Of a DNA stretch of 64,000 bases, positions 29,930 through 42,102 are shown in pieces; the stretch's first letter is position 1, and every line of letters begins with the position of its first letter. The DNA is from an uncultured Gammaproteobacteria bacterium. GTDB taxonomy: Bacteria; Patescibacteriota; Microgenomatia; 0-14-0-10-38-17. The notes below the pieces were generated by a model. It was not told the origin of the DNA. It worked only from the letters and a program-made list of their open reading frames with translations, and made no database searches. Where the stretch lies: positions 312,002 through 376,001 of the forward strand of contig CAYGEH010000001.1 in the NCBI GenBank assembly GCA_964348895.1, in the 5' to 3' direction. A program made the position numbers and the translations under genes.

Positions 29930-30136
29930 ATGACAAGTGGAGAAATAATCAGCGAAAATATTAAACGATTACGCAGTAAACTTGGCTTAACCCAAGACGA
30001 CTTAGCCAAGAAGGCGGATATTAAATACACAACGCTTATGAAAGTCGAAAGCGGTGCTGTAAATAAGCCAAGCGTTCAAACTATGGCGAAAATCGCCAAA
30101 GCGCTTGGTGTTTCAATAGAAGATTTAATAAAGTAA
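29930..30136 (+). CDS. XRE-family helix-turn-helix transcriptional regulator (68 aa)
   Basis: IKRLRSKLGLTQDDLAKKADIKYTTLMKVESG classic XRE HTH; 9 bp before the next gene. Confidence 0.8.
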   Translation: MTSGEIISENIKRLRSKLGLTQDDLAKKADIKYTTLMKVESGAVNKPSVQTMAKIAKALGVSIEDLIK

Positions 30137-30145
30137 AATAAACTT

Positions 30146-30910
30146 ATGAACAAAAAAATTCTTTGGATAATCACAGTTATAATTATTCTCATCAGCGCGG
30201 GTGTATATTTTGTGTTGAACCAGCAACAATCATCGCCGTCGCAGATGATTACTAATTTTGAGGAGTGCGCCCGAGCTGGTTATCCGGTTGGGGAATCATA
30301 CCCAAGACAATGTTGGACACCCGATGGCGGACATTTTGTAGAAGAAATAAAAATTGAACAAATAAAAGAAAAATATACGTCTGAATTGATGGCTATTCCC
30401 GGCGTGGTCGGCGTTGGCATTGGTGAATGTGAAGGCAATCCTTGTATCAAGGTGTTTTTAGAAAACGATTCATCGGACTTGAAAGCGAAAATACCAGCCC
30501 AACTTGACGGATTCAAGGTAGATATCGAAGTAACCGGACCTATTGAAGCGTTAGGTCAAGTAACCATTGTAAGTATGGCGCCCTTATCCGGCTCTTTAGG
30601 AGAAGGAGTTACTATCTACGGCTCAGGTTTTACTCCAAACAATAACGATATTGCTTTTACTAGTGACAAGATAAAGTTCCGAGGAAGAAATACCGCTTAT
30701 TTAAATGGCATTGTTTCTCCAGATGGCAAAACATTGCGCTTTAATCTTCCGGATAACAATAATGTACTGCTTGGCGCCTGCGCATTCTCGCAAATGAAAG
30801 CAAACGAAGCATGTCCAGATATTGGGATAGAATTACCAACAGGCAGTGTCCAAATTTCCGTTGTAAATAAGAATGGTACAAGCAATAGTGTAACCATTGT
30901 AGTAAGATGA
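30146..30910 (+). CDS. secreted/membrane-anchored protein with conserved Cys-containing N-terminal module and beta-sandwich-like C-terminus
   Basis: N-terminal signal anchor; NFEECARAGYPVGESYPRQCWTPDGGHFVEE shared with the protein at 36548-37057; C-terminal G/T/N-rich beta-strand pattern. Confidence 0.65.
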   Translation: MNKKILWIITVIIILISAGVYFVLNQQQSSPSQMITNFEECARAGYPVGESYPRQCWTPDGGHFVEEIKIEQIKEKYTSELMAIPGVVGVGIGECEGNPCIKVFLENDSSDLKAKIPAQLDGFKVDIEVTGPIEALGQVTIVSMAPLSGSLGEGVTIYGSGFTPNNNDIAFTSDKIKFRGRNTAYLNGIVSPDGKTLRFNLPDNNNVLLGACAFSQMKANEACPDIGIELPTGSVQISVVNKNGTSNSVTIVVR

Positions 30911-36547: not shown

Positions 36548-37057
36548 GTGGGTAGAAAAACTGCTTTTATCATCGTAATTGCTCTTTTCCTTTTGGGCTT
36601 GGGTGTGTATTTTATGCAAGCCCAGCAAAGACCATTATCAACACAAGCAGTAACCAACTTTAAAGAATGTGCTCAGGCTGGTTTTCCTGTGGGAGAATCT
36701 TTTCCTAGACAATGCTGGACACCAGACGGAAGGCATTTTGTTGAAGAAGTAAAACAAGAAGGGCCGTCCCCTGTTTCGGAATCAATTATGATCTCTGGAA
36801 CAATAACCTGCCTGCCAAAAATCAGTTCAGGCCCACAAACCATGGAGTGTGCCATTGGCTTAAAAGACAATGACGGCGACTATTATGGCCTAAAAAATCT
36901 CTTTAGTTTTGACCTGGAGTATAAGTTTTCTCAGCCTGGATTAAGAGTTCAGGTTTCTGGTGTTTTACTGGAGGAGGAAATGAGGGGTCCAGACGGAAAC
37001 AGATATGATATTATCGGAGTAATTGATTTGGCTTCCATAAAAGAGGCTGAAAATTAA
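36548..37057 (+). CDS. secreted/membrane-anchored protein, paralog of 30146-30910 N-terminal module
   Basis: NFKECAQAGFPVGESFPRQCWTPDGRHFVEE ~80% identical to the N-terminal module of 30146 protein; different C-terminus. Confidence 0.65.
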   Translation: MGRKTAFIIVIALFLLGLGVYFMQAQQRPLSTQAVTNFKECAQAGFPVGESFPRQCWTPDGRHFVEEVKQEGPSPVSESIMISGTITCLPKISSGPQTMECAIGLKDNDGDYYGLKNLFSFDLEYKFSQPGLRVQVSGVLLEEEMRGPDGNRYDIIGVIDLASIKEAEN

Positions 37058-37081: not shown

Positions 37082-37165
37082 GGAAGGGTCGGATAATGGT
37101 ATTCCACCAGTCTTGAAAACTGGCGCCGCTAAAATGGCTTGTGGGTTCGAGCCCCACCCCTTCCG
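37082..37165 (+). tRNA. tRNA-Ser (anticodon TGA), type II; CCA not encoded
   Basis: GGAAGGG acceptor, anticodon loop CTTGAAA, long variable arm, GGTTCGAGCCC T-loop. Confidence 0.8.
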
Positions 37166-37175
37166 CCCTCTCTTT

Positions 37176-37249
37176 GTTCCCGTAGCTCAGCTGGATAGAG
37201 TGACGGTTTCCGGAACCGTAGGTCGCGTGTTCAAATCACGCCGGGAACG
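37176..37249 (+). tRNA. tRNA-Arg (anticodon CCG)
   Basis: GTTCCCG acceptor, anticodon loop TTCCGGA, GTGTTCAAATCAC T-arm; ends 3 nt before the Nudix ATG. Confidence 0.85.
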
Positions 37250-37252
37250 CTT

Positions 37253-37675
37253 ATGAAACGAGAATTTTCTGCTGGTGGAATCGTTTATAAAAAAGAGGGC
37301 GACAGGGTTCTTTGGTTGTTAATTCAACCAAAAGACACTAATCGCTGGCAATTTCCTAAGGGCTGGATCGAAGCAGGTGAAACGGCCAAAGCTGCAGCCC
37401 TAAGAGAGGTAGAAGAAGAGACTGGTGTTATTGGGGAAATGATAACAAGAATCGGAAGAGTTTCGTGGTGGTTTGTTGAGAATGGTGAAAAAATTTTTAA
37501 AACTACTACCTACTTCTTGATCGAGGCTAAGGAAAGTCTCAAGCAATTTGACAAGGAGGAAATTGAAAAAATTGCTTGGGTTTCTTTTGCCAAAGCTCAA
37601 GAAAAACTCACTTTTGATTCAGCTAAAAAAGCTCTAAAACAAGCTGAAGGGGTTTTGGCTAATCGGTTGTTTTAG
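37253..37675 (+). CDS. Nudix hydrolase
   Basis: Nudix box GWIEAGETAKAAALREVEEETGV (Gx5Ex7REUxEExGU). Confidence 0.8.
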   Translation: MKREFSAGGIVYKKEGDRVLWLLIQPKDTNRWQFPKGWIEAGETAKAAALREVEEETGVIGEMITRIGRVSWWFVENGEKIFKTTTYFLIEAKESLKQFDKEEIEKIAWVSFAKAQEKLTFDSAKKALKQAEGVLANRLF

Positions 37676-37811
37676 ATCATCTTCTTTTTAAGAGAAAACG
37701 CTAAAAAAAGAAACCAATCAAATATGAGGGGCAACAAAAAGCGCCGTTAGCTATAATTTTCTTCTCAAAAAAACTTATTGATATAATAAGGGTGGCAAAA
37801 AAATTAACTTT

Positions 37812-37903
<92 letters not shown>

Positions 37904-38044
37904 TTAGGAAATGTCTTTGTTCCACAAAGCGGACGCTAGAGGCGAGTTTTTGTTGATTAGGTTCATTTTGTTTGGGAACATAAAAAAATGAAAATAAACA
38001 CCAATTTAATCTTAAGTTGTCAGAATCCTAAGATGTGGCAAGTA

Positions 38045-38235
38045 ATAAAAATACAATTAGGAACAACATCAAGAAATTACGAGTAAAGCTTGGTTTAACG
38101 CAAGACAATTTAGCCAAAAAAATCTGGTGCTAAACACATAACCCTTTCAAAAATTGAAAACGAGGCGTTTACAAAATCGGTCGCACATAATAATATAACA
38201 GTGAAATCTCTAAAACGCTTGGTGTTTTTTAATAG
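38045..38235 (+). pseudogene. decayed copy of the XRE HTH gene (frameshifted, no start codon)
   Basis: Translates ...IRNNIKKLRVKLGLTQDNLAKK then shifts frame to SGAKHITLSKIENEAF...; clear homology to 29930-30136 protein but disrupted. Confidence 0.5.
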
Positions 38236-38279
38236 AAGAATTATTAAAATAGTTTTAATCATCATTTAAAAATAAATTT

Positions 38280-38627
38280 ATGAGGAAAAAAATATCAAAA
38301 TTTTTAAATAGAACTATTTTTCTAGTTGCCAGCGTATTAACAGCCATTTTTTTAAAAGCAGCTCATGCTTTGGCTCAAGAATTTAATCCAAATACAGTAA
38401 TTATTTATGGTCCTCCAGAGCTTATAGCCTGCGGGGGCAATAAATTGTGCTATTCATTATTACTATACTGGTCAAGACTTTCGTGGATATCTGCTATTAT
38501 TGTTTTGCTTGTTTTACTTGCGATACCATTTGGGATTGTTAAGCTCATAACAAAAGTTGTCCGAAGAAAGAAACAAAATCAAAAAATTCAACCACCAAAA
38601 TCAACCGATGGATTACCCAAGCAGTAG
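38280..38627 (+). CDS. small signal-peptide/TM protein with CGGNKLC motif; possible substrate or partner of the downstream radical-SAM enzyme
   Basis: 115 aa; stop TAG immediately followed by the radical-SAM ATG (TAGATG). Confidence 0.45.
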   Translation: MRKKISKFLNRTIFLVASVLTAIFLKAAHALAQEFNPNTVIIYGPPELIACGGNKLCYSLLLYWSRLSWISAIIVLLVLLAIPFGIVKLITKVVRRKKQNQKIQPPKSTDGLPKQ

Positions 38628-39680
38628 ATGTCAAATTATCTTTTGTCGAAAATCAAACTTATTGGTTTTCAAAAGAGCTTTTTATTGTCCTATAAAATAG
38701 GCGTTGTTCCTCCACCAAAGTTTATAATTTGGGATTGCACCAGAAAATGTAATTTGAGCTGCGAACACTGTGGTGCAAAAAAAGAGAAATATTCGACAGA
38801 GCTCACAACTCAACAGACAAAGAATCTCGTTAAAAAACTATCAGACTACAAAGTTAAGTATTTCGTTGTTACAGGTGGAGAGCCATTATTAAGACAAGAC
38901 CTTTTTGAAATTTTTTCTTTTGCAAAAGAAGTTGGACTGAAAACTGGTTTAGCAACGAACGGTTTCTTTATTAACGAAGACAACAGTAAAGTTATCGCTA
39001 AGGTTTTTGATTCTGTCCAGATTAGCTTAGACGGGCCTCAAGAGGTCCACAATAAGATAAGGGGAAATAAAGAGGCTTTTCAAAGGGCTGTTAACGGAGT
39101 AAACTTGCTTCGCAAAAATAAATGTAAGCAAATAACAATATCTTCGGTTATTACCACTTCAAACATTAGGAATTTAAAGAAACTTATAGGAATAGTAAAG
39201 AAATTAGATGTTGATATTTGGAAAATTGTTTCGGTTATGCCAATAGGAAAGGTTGAACAAAATGATAATTTATACTTAAATAGGCAAGAGTTTTTAAAAC
39301 TTTTAAATTTCATAAAAAGGAATAAAAAGAAATTAAGAATTGAGTTTGGGGAAAATCTTGGCTATTTAGAAAAATATGATAAGAAGGTAAGAAGTGAACC
39401 ATTCTTTTGCCCGGTTGGATTTTTGGCTTGTTGTGTTGGCGTTAATGGAAAAATAAGAGGATGTCCCGAGCAGCCGGATATTCCATCTTTTACAGAAGGA
39501 AATATTTTAGAAAGGGATTTTTCTGAAATTTGGGAAAGTGGATTTAAGAAATATCGGGACAGGGAGCTTTTACAAGATGAAACCTGCAGGAAATGTAAGC
39601 TTAAGAATGACTGCAATGGTGGTTGTTGGGTAATGAGATTAAAAGACATTAACTGTTCAGTAAGACGATATTGTTTATAA
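38628..39680 (+). CDS. radical SAM enzyme with C-terminal SPASM-like Cys-rich domain
   Basis: CNLSCEHC (CxxxCxxC) radical-SAM cluster; C-terminal CPVGFLACCVGVNGKIRGC...CRKCKLKNDCNGGCW auxiliary-cluster pattern. Confidence 0.85.
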   Translation: MSNYLLSKIKLIGFQKSFLLSYKIGVVPPPKFIIWDCTRKCNLSCEHCGAKKEKYSTELTTQQTKNLVKKLSDYKVKYFVVTGGEPLLRQDLFEIFSFAKEVGLKTGLATNGFFINEDNSKVIAKVFDSVQISLDGPQEVHNKIRGNKEAFQRAVNGVNLLRKNKCKQITISSVITTSNIRNLKKLIGIVKKLDVDIWKIVSVMPIGKVEQNDNLYLNRQEFLKLLNFIKRNKKKLRIEFGENLGYLEKYDKKVRSEPFFCPVGFLACCVGVNGKIRGCPEQPDIPSFTEGNILERDFSEIWESGFKKYRDRELLQDETCRKCKLKNDCNGGCWVMRLKDINCSVRRYCL

Positions 39681-39728
39681 TAAAAATAATTTACCGCCAA
39701 GGAACAAAGAGAACAAAGAACCAGCCCC

Positions 39729-40523
39729 ATGAATAACTTCTCAAGAAATATAGCAAAAACCGTTGAGGAAAGCGTAGTAATGACAATGGACGGTTCCGAC
39801 AAAGAAATCTTCCCATTTTTACCCTACATACTTCAAGATCTTTGGGAGATTGGTTCAGACCCAGAGGTTATTATCAAATTGATTAAAAAACATTCCTTTA
39901 ATTACAATAACTTAAGGGTTCTTGACTTGGGTTGCGGAAAGGGGGCGGTTTCCATAAAAGTTGCGTGCGAATTTGGTTGTTCCTGCTATGGAATTGACGC
40001 AGTGTCTGAATTTATTTCTGATGCTCAGCAAAAAGCCGTTGAGTATAGCGTAGATCATTTATGTAAATATGAGATAGGAGATATTAGGGAGAAAGTGAAA
40101 GAACTGGGGGTATATGAAATCATAATTCTTGGGTCGATTGGGCCAGTTTTTGGAAATTGCTTTGCGACATTGATGGCCTTGTCAAAATGCTTAAGCGACT
40201 CGGGAATAATAATCATAGATAACGGTTATATTGAAGACAATGTCAGCTATACACATCCGTTATACTCCAAAAAACAAACAATTCTTCAACAAATAAACTC
40301 GGCGGAAATGAAATTAATAGAGAACGACATATTTAATCGCAACAAAATCAAACATTCCAACGATTTTATTTTTCATAATTTGAGAAAAAGGTGTCTGGAG
40401 CTAATTGATAAATATCCAAAAAAAAGAAACTTGTTTGAAGACTATATTAGAAAACAAGCAGAAGAGAATGGTGTGCTTGAAAATAAAATAATATGCACAA
40501 CAATGGTTATAAGAAGAAATTAA
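39729..40523 (+). CDS. class I SAM-dependent methyltransferase
   Basis: Motif I VLDLGCGKGAVS; 264 aa. Confidence 0.7.
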   Translation: MNNFSRNIAKTVEESVVMTMDGSDKEIFPFLPYILQDLWEIGSDPEVIIKLIKKHSFNYNNLRVLDLGCGKGAVSIKVACEFGCSCYGIDAVSEFISDAQQKAVEYSVDHLCKYEIGDIREKVKELGVYEIIILGSIGPVFGNCFATLMALSKCLSDSGIIIIDNGYIEDNVSYTHPLYSKKQTILQQINSAEMKLIENDIFNRNKIKHSNDFIFHNLRKRCLELIDKYPKKRNLFEDYIRKQAEENGVLENKIICTTMVIRRN

Positions 40524-40776
40524 GTAAAAAAGTCAATGTTTAAAATACTTTGGGATGCTTGTTGTTATTAAAGAAGAAATTCTAAATCTTTCTTTTCTTT
40601 TTCTAGCGGGAACGAACAGAAAGGGGGTGGAGAAAGTTGCATTCGCCCTTGATAGATTTTGGGTAAAATCAGTTCAAGTTTTTTTAAAAACATATCATCA
40701 AAAAAACAAAATAACCACTTTTGGCTCATTTTTTTAAAAAATTTATTTTATTCTAATAACAATTTAATTCCTGATA

Positions 40777-42102
40777 ATGTTTAAAAGTTTTTCAGAAGCA
40801 CAAAAGTATCTTTTCTCTCAAATTAGCAAGCAAAAAAAAGGCCTTTCTCCTGCTTATCGTTTATCCAGAACTAAGGAAATTCTCAAGTGTCTTAACAACC
40901 CTCAAAACAAAATAAAAAACATCCATATCGCCGGAACTGCCGGAAAAGGTTCAACAGCCTTTTTGCTCAGTCTAATTCTAAGATCACAAGGCTTTAGAGT
41001 TGGTCTTCATCTTTCCCCACACCTAGTTGACATTCGGGAGCGATTTCAAATTAATCATCAATTAATCTCAAAAAAACAATTTTTAAAACACCTTAATAGC
41101 CTTTTACCTGTTTTAGAAAAAATTAGCAAAACTCCGTTTGGGCCCCCAGATTACTTTGAAATTTTAACCGTTATGGCTTTTCAAATTTTTTATCAAGAAA
41201 AAGTTGATTATGCCGTTATTGAAACTGGAATAGGGGGGTTATACGACTCAACCAACACTATTGTTAGCCCTCAAAAGATTAACATCATTACCAGAATTGG
41301 CTTTGATCATTGCCAGATTCTGGGCAACACTCTAACAGAAATTGCTTTTCAAAAAATGGGCATTGTTGCTAACAACTCAACGGTTATCACTGGAGATCAA
41401 AGACCAACTGCCAGCTGGATGATTGAAAAAGCCTCTCAGCAAAAGCAGGCCTGGCTAATACAGGTAAAAGAGGGGAAAGATTTTCAAGTCGAACAAGTCA
41501 AGCTTGAAAAAACCAGCTTTTCTTATCAAGGACGCCCTCTTCTTTTGGGCTTAAGCGGTCGTCACCAAGTTCAAAACTGTGCTCTGGCCCTAAAAACAGT
41601 TGAATTAATCTCCAGCCGCGATCAATTCAAATTGTCTTGGCCTAAAATAAAGGTCGCTCTTGCTGGGGCACAATTTCCAGGCAGACTAGAAATTATTCAA
41701 AAAAATAATAAAAAAATAATTCTCGATGGCGCCCACAATGAGGCCAAAATGGTCGCCCTTACTGAAGCCTTAAAAGAGCTTTTCCCTCAAAAAAAATTCA
41801 ACTTTTTAATTGCTTTTAAAAGAGATAAAGACATTAGAAAAATGATTAAAAAGATTATTCCTTTAGCTAATAATATAACTATATCTAGTATTTTTTCTTC
41901 TGATAGTAATTGGCAGAAAATGATTTATCCTCCAAAAGAGATAGAGACACTTATCCACAATTTAGGCTTTACTAAAACTATCACTATTAGCGAACCAAAA
42001 CAGGCCCTTAAAGAAAGTCTTAAAAGCAATAATCGGCCATTAGTTGTTACCGGATCGCTTTACTTGCTTAGTGAGATTTATCCTTTATTGAGCAAGGGTT
42101 AA
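40777..42102 (+). CDS. folC: folylpolyglutamate synthase / Mur-ligase-family protein (FolC-like)
   Basis: P-loop IAGTAGKGST, Mur ligase middle-domain pattern, 441 aa. Confidence 0.7.
   Translation: MFKSFSEAQKYLFSQISKQKKGLSPAYRLSRTKEILKCLNNPQNKIKNIHIAGTAGKGSTAFLLSLILRSQGFRVGLHLSPHLVDIRERFQINHQLISKKQFLKHLNSLLPVLEKISKTPFGPPDYFEILTVMAFQIFYQEKVDYAVIETGIGGLYDSTNTIVSPQKINIITRIGFDHCQILGNTLTEIAFQKMGIVANNSTVITGDQRPTASWMIEKASQQKQAWLIQVKEGKDFQVEQVKLEKTSFSYQGRPLLLGLSGRHQVQNCALALKTVELISSRDQFKLSWPKIKVALAGAQFPGRLEIIQKNNKKIILDGAHNEAKMVALTEALKELFPQKKFNFLIAFKRDKDIRKMIKKIIPLANNITISSIFSSDSNWQKMIYPPKEIETLIHNLGFTKTITISEPKQALKESLKSNNRPLVVTGSLYLLSEIYPLLSKG

Follow-up and report, generated by a model that had tools for sequence, protein, structure and literature searches.

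A conserved gene pair encoding a radical-SAM/SPASM enzyme and a small exported membrane protein, its predicted substrate

What does a radical S-adenosylmethionine (SAM) enzyme act on when its gene directly abuts that for a small membrane protein? The question is raised by positions 38280–40523 of the 64,000-nt stretch of contig CAYGEH010000001.1 analysed here (the window, whose numbering is used throughout), in which three open reading frames (ORFs) follow one another on the + strand. They encode a 115-aa membrane protein (38280..38627), a 350-aa radical-SAM/SPASM enzyme (38628..39680) and a 264-aa class I SAM methyltransferase (39729..40523). The original prediction had described this three-ORF layout correctly and had read the trio as a peptide-modifying cassette. 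Comparison with relatives indicates that the pair of membrane protein and enzyme genes, not the trio, is the conserved unit, and that the two probably form a protein-maturation module in which the small membrane protein is the dedicated substrate of the adjacent enzyme. The enzyme class, the gene pairing, and a short motif in the partner with its conservation across two enzyme families are established directly.

The assignment of the product of 38628..39680 to the SPASM enzymes, already proposed, was borne out by Pfam, by homologues and by an AlphaFold2 (AF2) model. Pfam scores lie above the cutoffs for Radical_SAM (82.7 bits, cutoff 29.5), Fer4_12 (40.5 bits) and SPASM (28.4 bits, cutoff 21.5; residues 261–324). 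The radical-SAM cluster motif CX3CX2C (CNLSCEHC, 38748..38771, +) supplies C41, C45 and C48, which are invariant among 35 aligned homologues. The auxiliary-cluster region, from C261 to C343 (39408..39656, +), contains C261, C268/C269, C279, C320-x2-C323-x5-C329-x3-C333 and C343, all invariant in the same alignment except C268, which is kept in at least 90 %. This is the SPASM pattern (C269-x9-C279 with G274-x4-C279, the C320–C333 block and C343, plus C261), and the set would be enough for two auxiliary clusters. The AF2 model (pLDDT 94) comprises an N-terminal helix (residues 2–23), the radical-SAM core and the SPASM region. Neither Pfam nor the model reveals a PqqD-like recognition element (RRE) of the kind that binds peptides made on the ribosome and modified after translation (RiPPs), only about 30 residues preceding the core, and the enzyme has no signal peptide. 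Its closest solved folds are SkfB, SuiB, CteB, PqqE and the anaerobic sulfatase-maturating enzyme anSME (TMq 0.66–0.74), all of them peptide or protein maturases.

The enzyme family comprises 479 matches; identity falls to about 43 % among its full-length members and averages 57 % per alignment column. Members that bear an annotation belong to Microgenomates, Woesebacteria, Omnitrophica, Diapherotrites, Pacearchaeota, Woesearchaeota and Euryarchaeota, and a genome scan added Altiarchaeia and Cloacimonadota. The suggestion that such a system is unusual for a reduced genome of the candidate phyla radiation (CPR) type is thus not upheld, since Microgenomates, Woesebacteria, Diapherotrites, Pacearchaeota and Woesearchaeota are all among the annotated hosts.

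The small protein gene, listed as an ORF in the window, has orthologues that adjoin the enzyme gene in relatives. At the junction (38622–38633) the sequence reads CAG-TAG-ATG-TCA, so that the TAG of the 115-aa ORF abuts the ATG of the enzyme gene, as had been claimed. That the ORF is a real gene is consistent with an excess of third-codon-position differences in comparison with close relatives. The small protein also diverges more quickly than the enzyme does: in comparison with locus L091, identity is 74 % for the former and 87 % for the latter. The 115-aa protein has no match to any Pfam or NCBIfam family, nor do the other small partners, and a phmmer search with it of 1.84 billion representative proteins returned seven matches. 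Sub-threshold matches of the small proteins to MscL, holin and DUF models were driven by transmembrane (TM) helices and were judged to be noise.

In each of five contexts obtained from exact-protein look-ups, a small family-less ORF lies directly upstream of the enzyme gene and the downstream genes differ. A scan of metagenome contigs with an alignment restricted to the C-terminal part of the enzyme then gave 80 true family loci. A genome scan with patterns from the full-length alignment also caught AhbD/NirJ-like genes, and L006 and L007 were the sole true members among the matches listed. Pairing was assessed in 58 distinct loci with upstream sequence, which span 42–100 % enzyme identity and 28–68 % GC. 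According to the original prediction, its case would fall if the upstream protein were not co-conserved with the enzyme. It is co-conserved: in 57 of these loci the enzyme gene is preceded, on its own strand, by an ORF for a small membrane or secreted protein. This includes L150, at first an apparent exception, in which the small ORF is about 260 nt upstream; L160 is the sole locus with a different neighbour. The gap between partner and enzyme genes has a median of 10 nt and is at most 40 nt in 55 of the 58 loci, with several pairs adjoining or overlapping. In an all-versus-all clustering of ORFs within 4 kb on each side of the enzyme gene in 88 loci, the small partners were the sole recurrent family; their BLAST clusters cover 25, 18 and 7 loci, while any other neighbour reaches six loci at most.

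The methyltransferase behaves quite differently. Its assignment to class I (Methyltransf_31, 42.6 bits) agrees with the original prediction, and it follows the enzyme gene after 48 nt (49 bp had been given). By tblastn, however, it is found in none of the 87 other family loci, including those with 80–87 % identical enzymes, and the proposal that the three genes form a unit must be withdrawn. In L102, whose enzyme is 82 % identical, about 490 nt separate the enzyme gene from a downstream folC, and no methyltransferase lies between them. The confinement of the methyltransferase to one lineage, together with the lower GC of the 38–42 kb stretch (0.335–0.339, against 0.384 for the whole window), may point to DNA inserted between the enzyme gene and folC. 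The methyltransferase is a lineage-specific neighbour outside the module. Elsewhere in the family, in L005 (1–5110), where the enzyme is 66 % identical, genes resembling those of type IV pili (N_methyl/GspH, PilM, PilN) come just upstream of the pair, an arrangement seen in that lineage only.

The partners are barely alike in sequence, and what they have in common is a short motif, with consensus T-M-V-V-Y-G-P-P-P or M-V-I-Y-A-P-P-E-V-F. In the window it is VIIYGPPE (residues 40–47; 38397..38420, +), the predicted modification site. A strict form of the motif, [MIVLFA][MIVLAFTEDCS]Y[GAM](Px|[PSAT]P), occurs in 48 of the 58 distinct partner proteins but in only 14 of 1165 control ORFs of at least 60 aa from the same loci (1.2 %). 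Among the 81 window ORFs of at least 60 aa it is present in one, the 115-aa protein. Tyr occupies its position at all 62 motif sites, while Gly is replaced by Ala or Met at 28 of them. The original prediction had recommended a search for a precursor; a small ORF does adjoin the enzyme gene, and its conserved feature is this motif, which had gone unnoticed, rather than the pair of cysteines to which attention had been drawn.

That pair, CGGNKLC (residues 51–57; 38430..38450, +), is indeed present, and comparison of the partners shows it to be specific to a sub-clade. The form C-G-x-N-K-[LV]-C is kept in the partners of L091, L100, L101, L103, L107, L110 and L113. It is absent from L092–L099, although their enzymes are 80–83 % identical, and from L005, L086, L088 and all partners of the types called B and C below, which removes its claim to be the relevant property of the protein. 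The two cysteines may form an extracytoplasmic disulfide, or they may be a further site of modification.

The motif is found in proteins of differing architecture. The 115-aa protein belongs to type A: a signal peptide with an AxA site comes first, then the motif, and after some 20 further residues a TM helix that leads into a basic tail. It has a basic N-terminus (MRKKISKFLNR), a hydrophobic core and the sequence AHALA|Q, from which a signal peptide or N-terminal hydrophobic helix is predicted for residues 1–32 (38280..38375, +); AxA-type sites also occur in the small proteins of relatives (VHA|, ALA|, VDA|). A hydropathy scan and counts of Lys and Arg place a TM anchor at about residues 64–94 and a basic cytoplasmic tail (RRKKQNQK...) at residues 95–115 (38469..38624, +), with four K+R in the N-terminus, one in the loop and seven in the C-terminus. 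The signal peptide and TM anchor of the original prediction are thus retained. Type B partners (e.g. Diapherotrites, L090) consist of a TM helix, a K/R-rich loop, a second TM helix and one to three C-terminal copies of M-V-x-Y-G-P-x-P; the Altiarchaeia-like type C has SR[IMV]YVP between two TM helices; and in type D (Omnitrophica, L089) a signal peptide and the motif precede a soluble domain. A hydrophobic helix shortly precedes the motif in all four types. Simple charge counts, read with the positive-inside rule, would place the motif outside the membrane in both main architectures.

Two loci, L118 (134–612) and L119 (3842–4320), contain two tandem partner ORFs of 78 and 75 aa upstream of the enzyme gene, and both ORFs bear the motif (AMMDYMPG and PMMIYMPSP), in the manner of duplicated precursor genes. 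Repetition of the motif and of the partner gene is easier to understand for a substrate than for a docking subunit. A further variant was seen in L153 (3988–4392), in which a 134-aa partner has a long acidic tail with three copies spaced about 30 residues apart (CYGPPDD, DYGPPEY and VYGPPPR); in other type B partners the copies stand back to back.

The best NCBIfam match of the enzyme is TIGR04133 ('rSAM_w_lipo'; 218.6 bits, E = 1e-64), below the curated cutoff of 425. TIGR04133 and TIGR04134, the latter a 'radical SAM-associated putative lipoprotein', are 'hypothetical equivalog' models without an assigned function, and a search of full-text literature on TIGR04133, TIGR04134, or SPASM proteins in CPR, DPANN or Bacteroides turned up no work on the gene pair described here or on the TIGR04133/TIGR04134 system. 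Two loci from the genome scan, L014 and L008, encode true TIGR04133 enzymes (552 and 469 bits). A TIGR04134 lipoprotein gene immediately precedes the enzyme gene in each, with no gap or with 4 nt of overlap; the upstream ORF of L014 scores 49.3 bits against TIGR04134 (cutoff 39.8). A single TIGR04134-like lipoprotein used as query gave three matches, and a profile built from three sequences gave 165 lipoproteins. Y-G-x-P occurs in 106 of the 114 TIGR04134-like lipoproteins examined, with the consensus M-Y-G-[TMS]-P-T-G-x-F-E and the Tyr 7–16 residues past the lipobox Cys. In some TIGR04133-type loci, such as L008 (5551–5949) and L016 (8174–8821), Tyr-Gly directly follows the lipobox Cys (QAC-YG and AAC-YG), which would place the motif at the very N-terminus of the mature lipoprotein. 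The L016 ORF lies about 1.1 kb downstream of the enzyme gene rather than upstream.

The two systems thus share a partner gene directly upstream of the enzyme gene and an exported partner with (V/M)-Y-G-x-P soon after the signal sequence. They also differ. The window enzyme is only about 29 % identical to true TIGR04133 members. The TIGR04134 protein is a lipoprotein of about 150 aa with a CarboxypepD_reg-like beta domain, whereas the window partner is a 115-aa bitopic or hairpin protein without a lipobox, and neither it nor nine other partners matched TIGR04134 even at E values up to 10. Hosts of TIGR04133 are Bacteroidota, while those of the window-type family are CPR bacteria, DPANN archaea and others. 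That two enzyme families with about 29 % identity have both kept the gene order and a Tyr-Gly-x-Pro just after the export signal, in partners that are otherwise unrelated, is the strongest argument for the motif as the target.

A SPASM enzyme, a co-conserved small protein upstream and the lack of any housekeeping class together make a peptide- or protein-modifying role the best reading, and we infer the substrate relationship, its timing and the site of modification. The enzyme, which has no signal peptide, no RRE and a 23-residue N-terminal helix before the core, would act in the cytoplasm. It would recognize the newly made partner through hydrophobic-hydrophobic-Tyr-(Gly/Ala/Met)-Pro or -x-Pro just C-terminal to the signal or TM helix, and would probably bind the adjacent hydrophobic helix as well, before export or membrane insertion; the N-terminal helix of the small protein may serve as a recognition helix. 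Chemistry driven by the 5'-deoxyadenosyl radical, with two auxiliary clusters, would then modify the motif, most likely at Tyr, for example by an intramolecular cross-link or a side-chain change, and the modified segment would subsequently be moved to the outer face of the membrane. It is possible, and put forward here tentatively, that this is a previously undescribed Tyr modification in membrane-proximal hh-Y-G/A-P segments (h, hydrophobic) of Sec-exported, anchored or lipidated proteins. Equally tentative is the range proposed for it: CPR bacteria, DPANN and other archaea, Omnitrophota and, as TIGR04133, Bacteroidota.

Several points weigh against a substrate role for the partner, or against Tyr as its target. 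The role is predicted from gene context and motif, and gene adjacency could also be accounted for by a partner that is not a substrate, for instance one that tethers the enzyme to the membrane. Topology and signal-peptide cleavage are predicted from simple hydropathy and charge counts. The strict motif is missing from 10 of the 58 partners; these are mostly of type C, several of which still have the Tyr in SR[IMV]YVP. In three type C partners there is no Tyr at the motif position (SRVLVP in L126, MSRIRSN in L141 and L146), so that Tyr may not be a universal target. The Pro lies at +2, +3 or +4, which argues against one fixed Tyr–Pro cross-link. The genome scan was saturated by AhbD/NirJ-like genes, and co-occurrence was consequently measured on metagenome contigs instead of complete genomes. 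Two candidate reactions were discarded: a GFP-like Tyr-Gly cyclization, because Ala or Met so often stands in for Gly, and epimerization at position +1, because the residue there is usually Gly.

Among characterized systems, anSME offers an analogy. This cytoplasmic enzyme acts on a short linear motif of Sec-exported sulfatases before their export. The logic of the proposed module resembles this more than a RiPP pathway that releases its product. Both are SPASM enzymes of similar size without an RRE, and anSME (PDB 4k36–4k39; TMq approximately 0.70–0.72) is the closest in size and identity (23–24 %) among the top structural matches. There are clear differences. The sulfatase motif C/S-x-P/A-x-R is absent from the window partner, no sulfatase gene recurs among the neighbours, and anSME is not among the 25 best of the 89 NCBIfam matches of the enzyme; here the target would be a dedicated, adjacent small protein with a conserved Tyr rather than Cys or Ser. 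PqqE and MftC, SPASM enzymes that make cofactors from peptides, each modify a Tyr in a small peptide that is dedicated to them and whose gene is close by. Homology of the window enzyme to both is clear from NCBIfam scores, which stay under the cutoffs (MftC, TIGR03962, 147.5 bits against 265, E = 5e-43; PqqE, 116 bits against 381, E = 1e-33), and PqqE (6c8v) aligns with TMq 0.66. The target sequences are different, however: PqqA has E-x3-Y, MftA ends in GVY and the partners here have hh-Y-G/A-P. No MftA-, MftB- or PqqD-type or other pathway genes were found near the pair.

For the reaction itself, cyclophane-type cross-linking is plausible by analogy. Cyclophane synthases (the triceptide 3-CyFEs HtkB, HaaB and ChlB) are likewise SPASM enzymes; they join an aromatic residue to a side chain in motifs of three to five residues (aromatic-X-X), of which a precursor often has several copies (PMC11499958). 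The partners too have a Tyr in a short, repeatable motif, Y-[GAM]-[P/x]. ChlB is, however, a weaker structural match (E approximately 7e-12, rank 26) than SkfB, SuiB and anSME, and the 25 best NCBIfam matches include no named cyclophane-synthase family. The partners also have signal peptides and TM anchors in place of leader peptides, and their Pro is not fixed in position. Modification in the cytoplasm of a protein destined for export has a precedent in the bufferins, whose precursors have Sec signal peptides (PMC12452194).

The alternatives can be weighed against this background. A classic RiPP cassette, in which the radical-SAM enzyme and the methyltransferase tailor a leader–core precursor from which a diffusible peptide is set free, would account for the small ORF directly before a SPASM gene, which is the usual RiPP layout. 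It would also accommodate the repeated motifs, which recall multi-core precursors, the tandem partner genes of L118 and L119, the RiPP maturases among the nearest solved folds and the aromatic-X-X specificity of cyclophane synthases (PMC11499958). We nevertheless regard it as unlikely. The methyltransferase is missing from 87 of 87 other loci, the enzyme has no RRE, and no leader protease, exporter or RRE protein is recurrent within 4 kb on each side in the 88 loci, so that a released product is not indicated. Moreover, partners keep TM anchors or lipoprotein or soluble domains, which suggests a product that stays attached to the cell, and the pair is widespread in reduced, symbiont-type genomes with little secondary metabolism. 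Of the two analogies offered by the original prediction, RiPP-like and anSME-like, the modification of a peptide or protein is retained, with anSME the nearer model, and the RiPP cassette in its classic form is not.

A tether or regulatory subunit is a different use for a small membrane protein: the enzyme would modify a lipid or another envelope component, and the partner would hold it at the membrane. The partners are almost wholly TM helices, the conserved N-terminal helix of the enzyme could lie on the membrane, the SPASM enzymes Tes and Gms modify membrane lipids (PMC11186832), and GDGT-MAS is among the PDB sequence matches of the enzyme (E = 1e-14). A lipid enzyme of the Gms/Tes type was considered and rejected, as Gms is more than 420 aa long and begins with an N-terminal domain of six helices, for which the window enzyme has no counterpart (PMC11186832). 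The idea of a tether is improbable on several further counts. With the motif predicted outside in both main architectures, a cytoplasmic enzyme could not dock on it once the partner is inserted; some partners, namely the secreted protein of Omnitrophica (L089) and the lipoproteins of Bacteroidota, have no TM anchor; the presence of one to three motif copies is hard to explain; and the closest folds are peptide maturases. Least probable is a housekeeping cofactor enzyme near AhbD, NirJ or MoaA with a small ORF adjacent by chance. After TIGR04133 the next NCBIfam scores do belong to AhbD (TIGR04545; 154.1 bits, E = 6e-45), the peptide maturase MftC and NirJ (138 bits, E = 4e-40), and AhbD also has a SPASM domain and two auxiliary clusters (PMC10452713). 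These scores are far under the curated cutoffs (500 for AhbD and 515 for NirJ), as are those for MoaA (75–83 bits against 284–325), so that no housekeeping family is reached; a confident assignment to one would have counted against the original prediction. No tetrapyrrole or molybdenum cofactor genes recur within 4 kb of the enzyme genes, and the pairing with a motif-bearing partner in 57 loci would be left unexplained.

With the small protein as substrate, a gene that would be annotated anonymously as a 'radical SAM domain protein' becomes part of a concrete enzyme–substrate hypothesis with a defined motif. A SPASM maturase with a dedicated adjacent substrate is a known type of system; new is a variant that is sister to an uncharacterized curated one, the TIGR04133/TIGR04134 pair of gut Bacteroidota, which has the proposed target motif in common with it. 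In CPR bacteria and DPANN archaea, whose genomes are very small and whose envelopes are poorly understood, a module of two genes that is kept across these lineages probably matters for surface biology. If the hypothesis is right, the outcome would not be a natural product that is secreted but a new post-translational modification of cell-envelope proteins, such as a Tyr-derived cross-link or a redox-active group tethered on the outward face of the membrane. The sister system occurs in Bacteroidota that can be grown and manipulated genetically, and could reveal new radical chemistry on Tyr-Gly-x-Pro. For annotation, the correction to be made is that the methyltransferase and the Cys pair stand outside the conserved unit.

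The surroundings of the pair in the window offer some minor observations. Genes for tRNA-Ser(tga) and tRNA-Arg(ccg), 8 nt apart, occupy 37082–37250 and end 2 nt before the start of a NUDIX gene (37253), and a tRNA-Ser(gga) gene (37813–37902) lies between the NUDIX gene and the cassette; no integrase or island-like repeat was seen near these tRNA genes. A scan for promoters and terminators from 37600 to 41000 gave counts not above shuffled expectation and has no bearing on operon boundaries.

A 68-aa XRE-type helix-turn-helix (HTH) gene is directly upstream of the small-protein gene in L091–L101, in copies that are 91–100 % identical. At this position the window has an HTH remnant of about 23 codons (38053–38121; 78 % identity), and an intact copy (85 % identity) is found 8 kb away at 29930–30136. 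This upstream regulator may thus have been lost or moved here. A duplication involving the HTH gene and a secreted protein is visible at the protein level only, with no notable DNA repeat at 29–39 kb: the 169-aa secreted protein encoded at 36548–37057 shares its N-terminal region (68 % identity over 53 residues) with a 254-aa ORF (30146–30910), which lies directly after the intact HTH gene.

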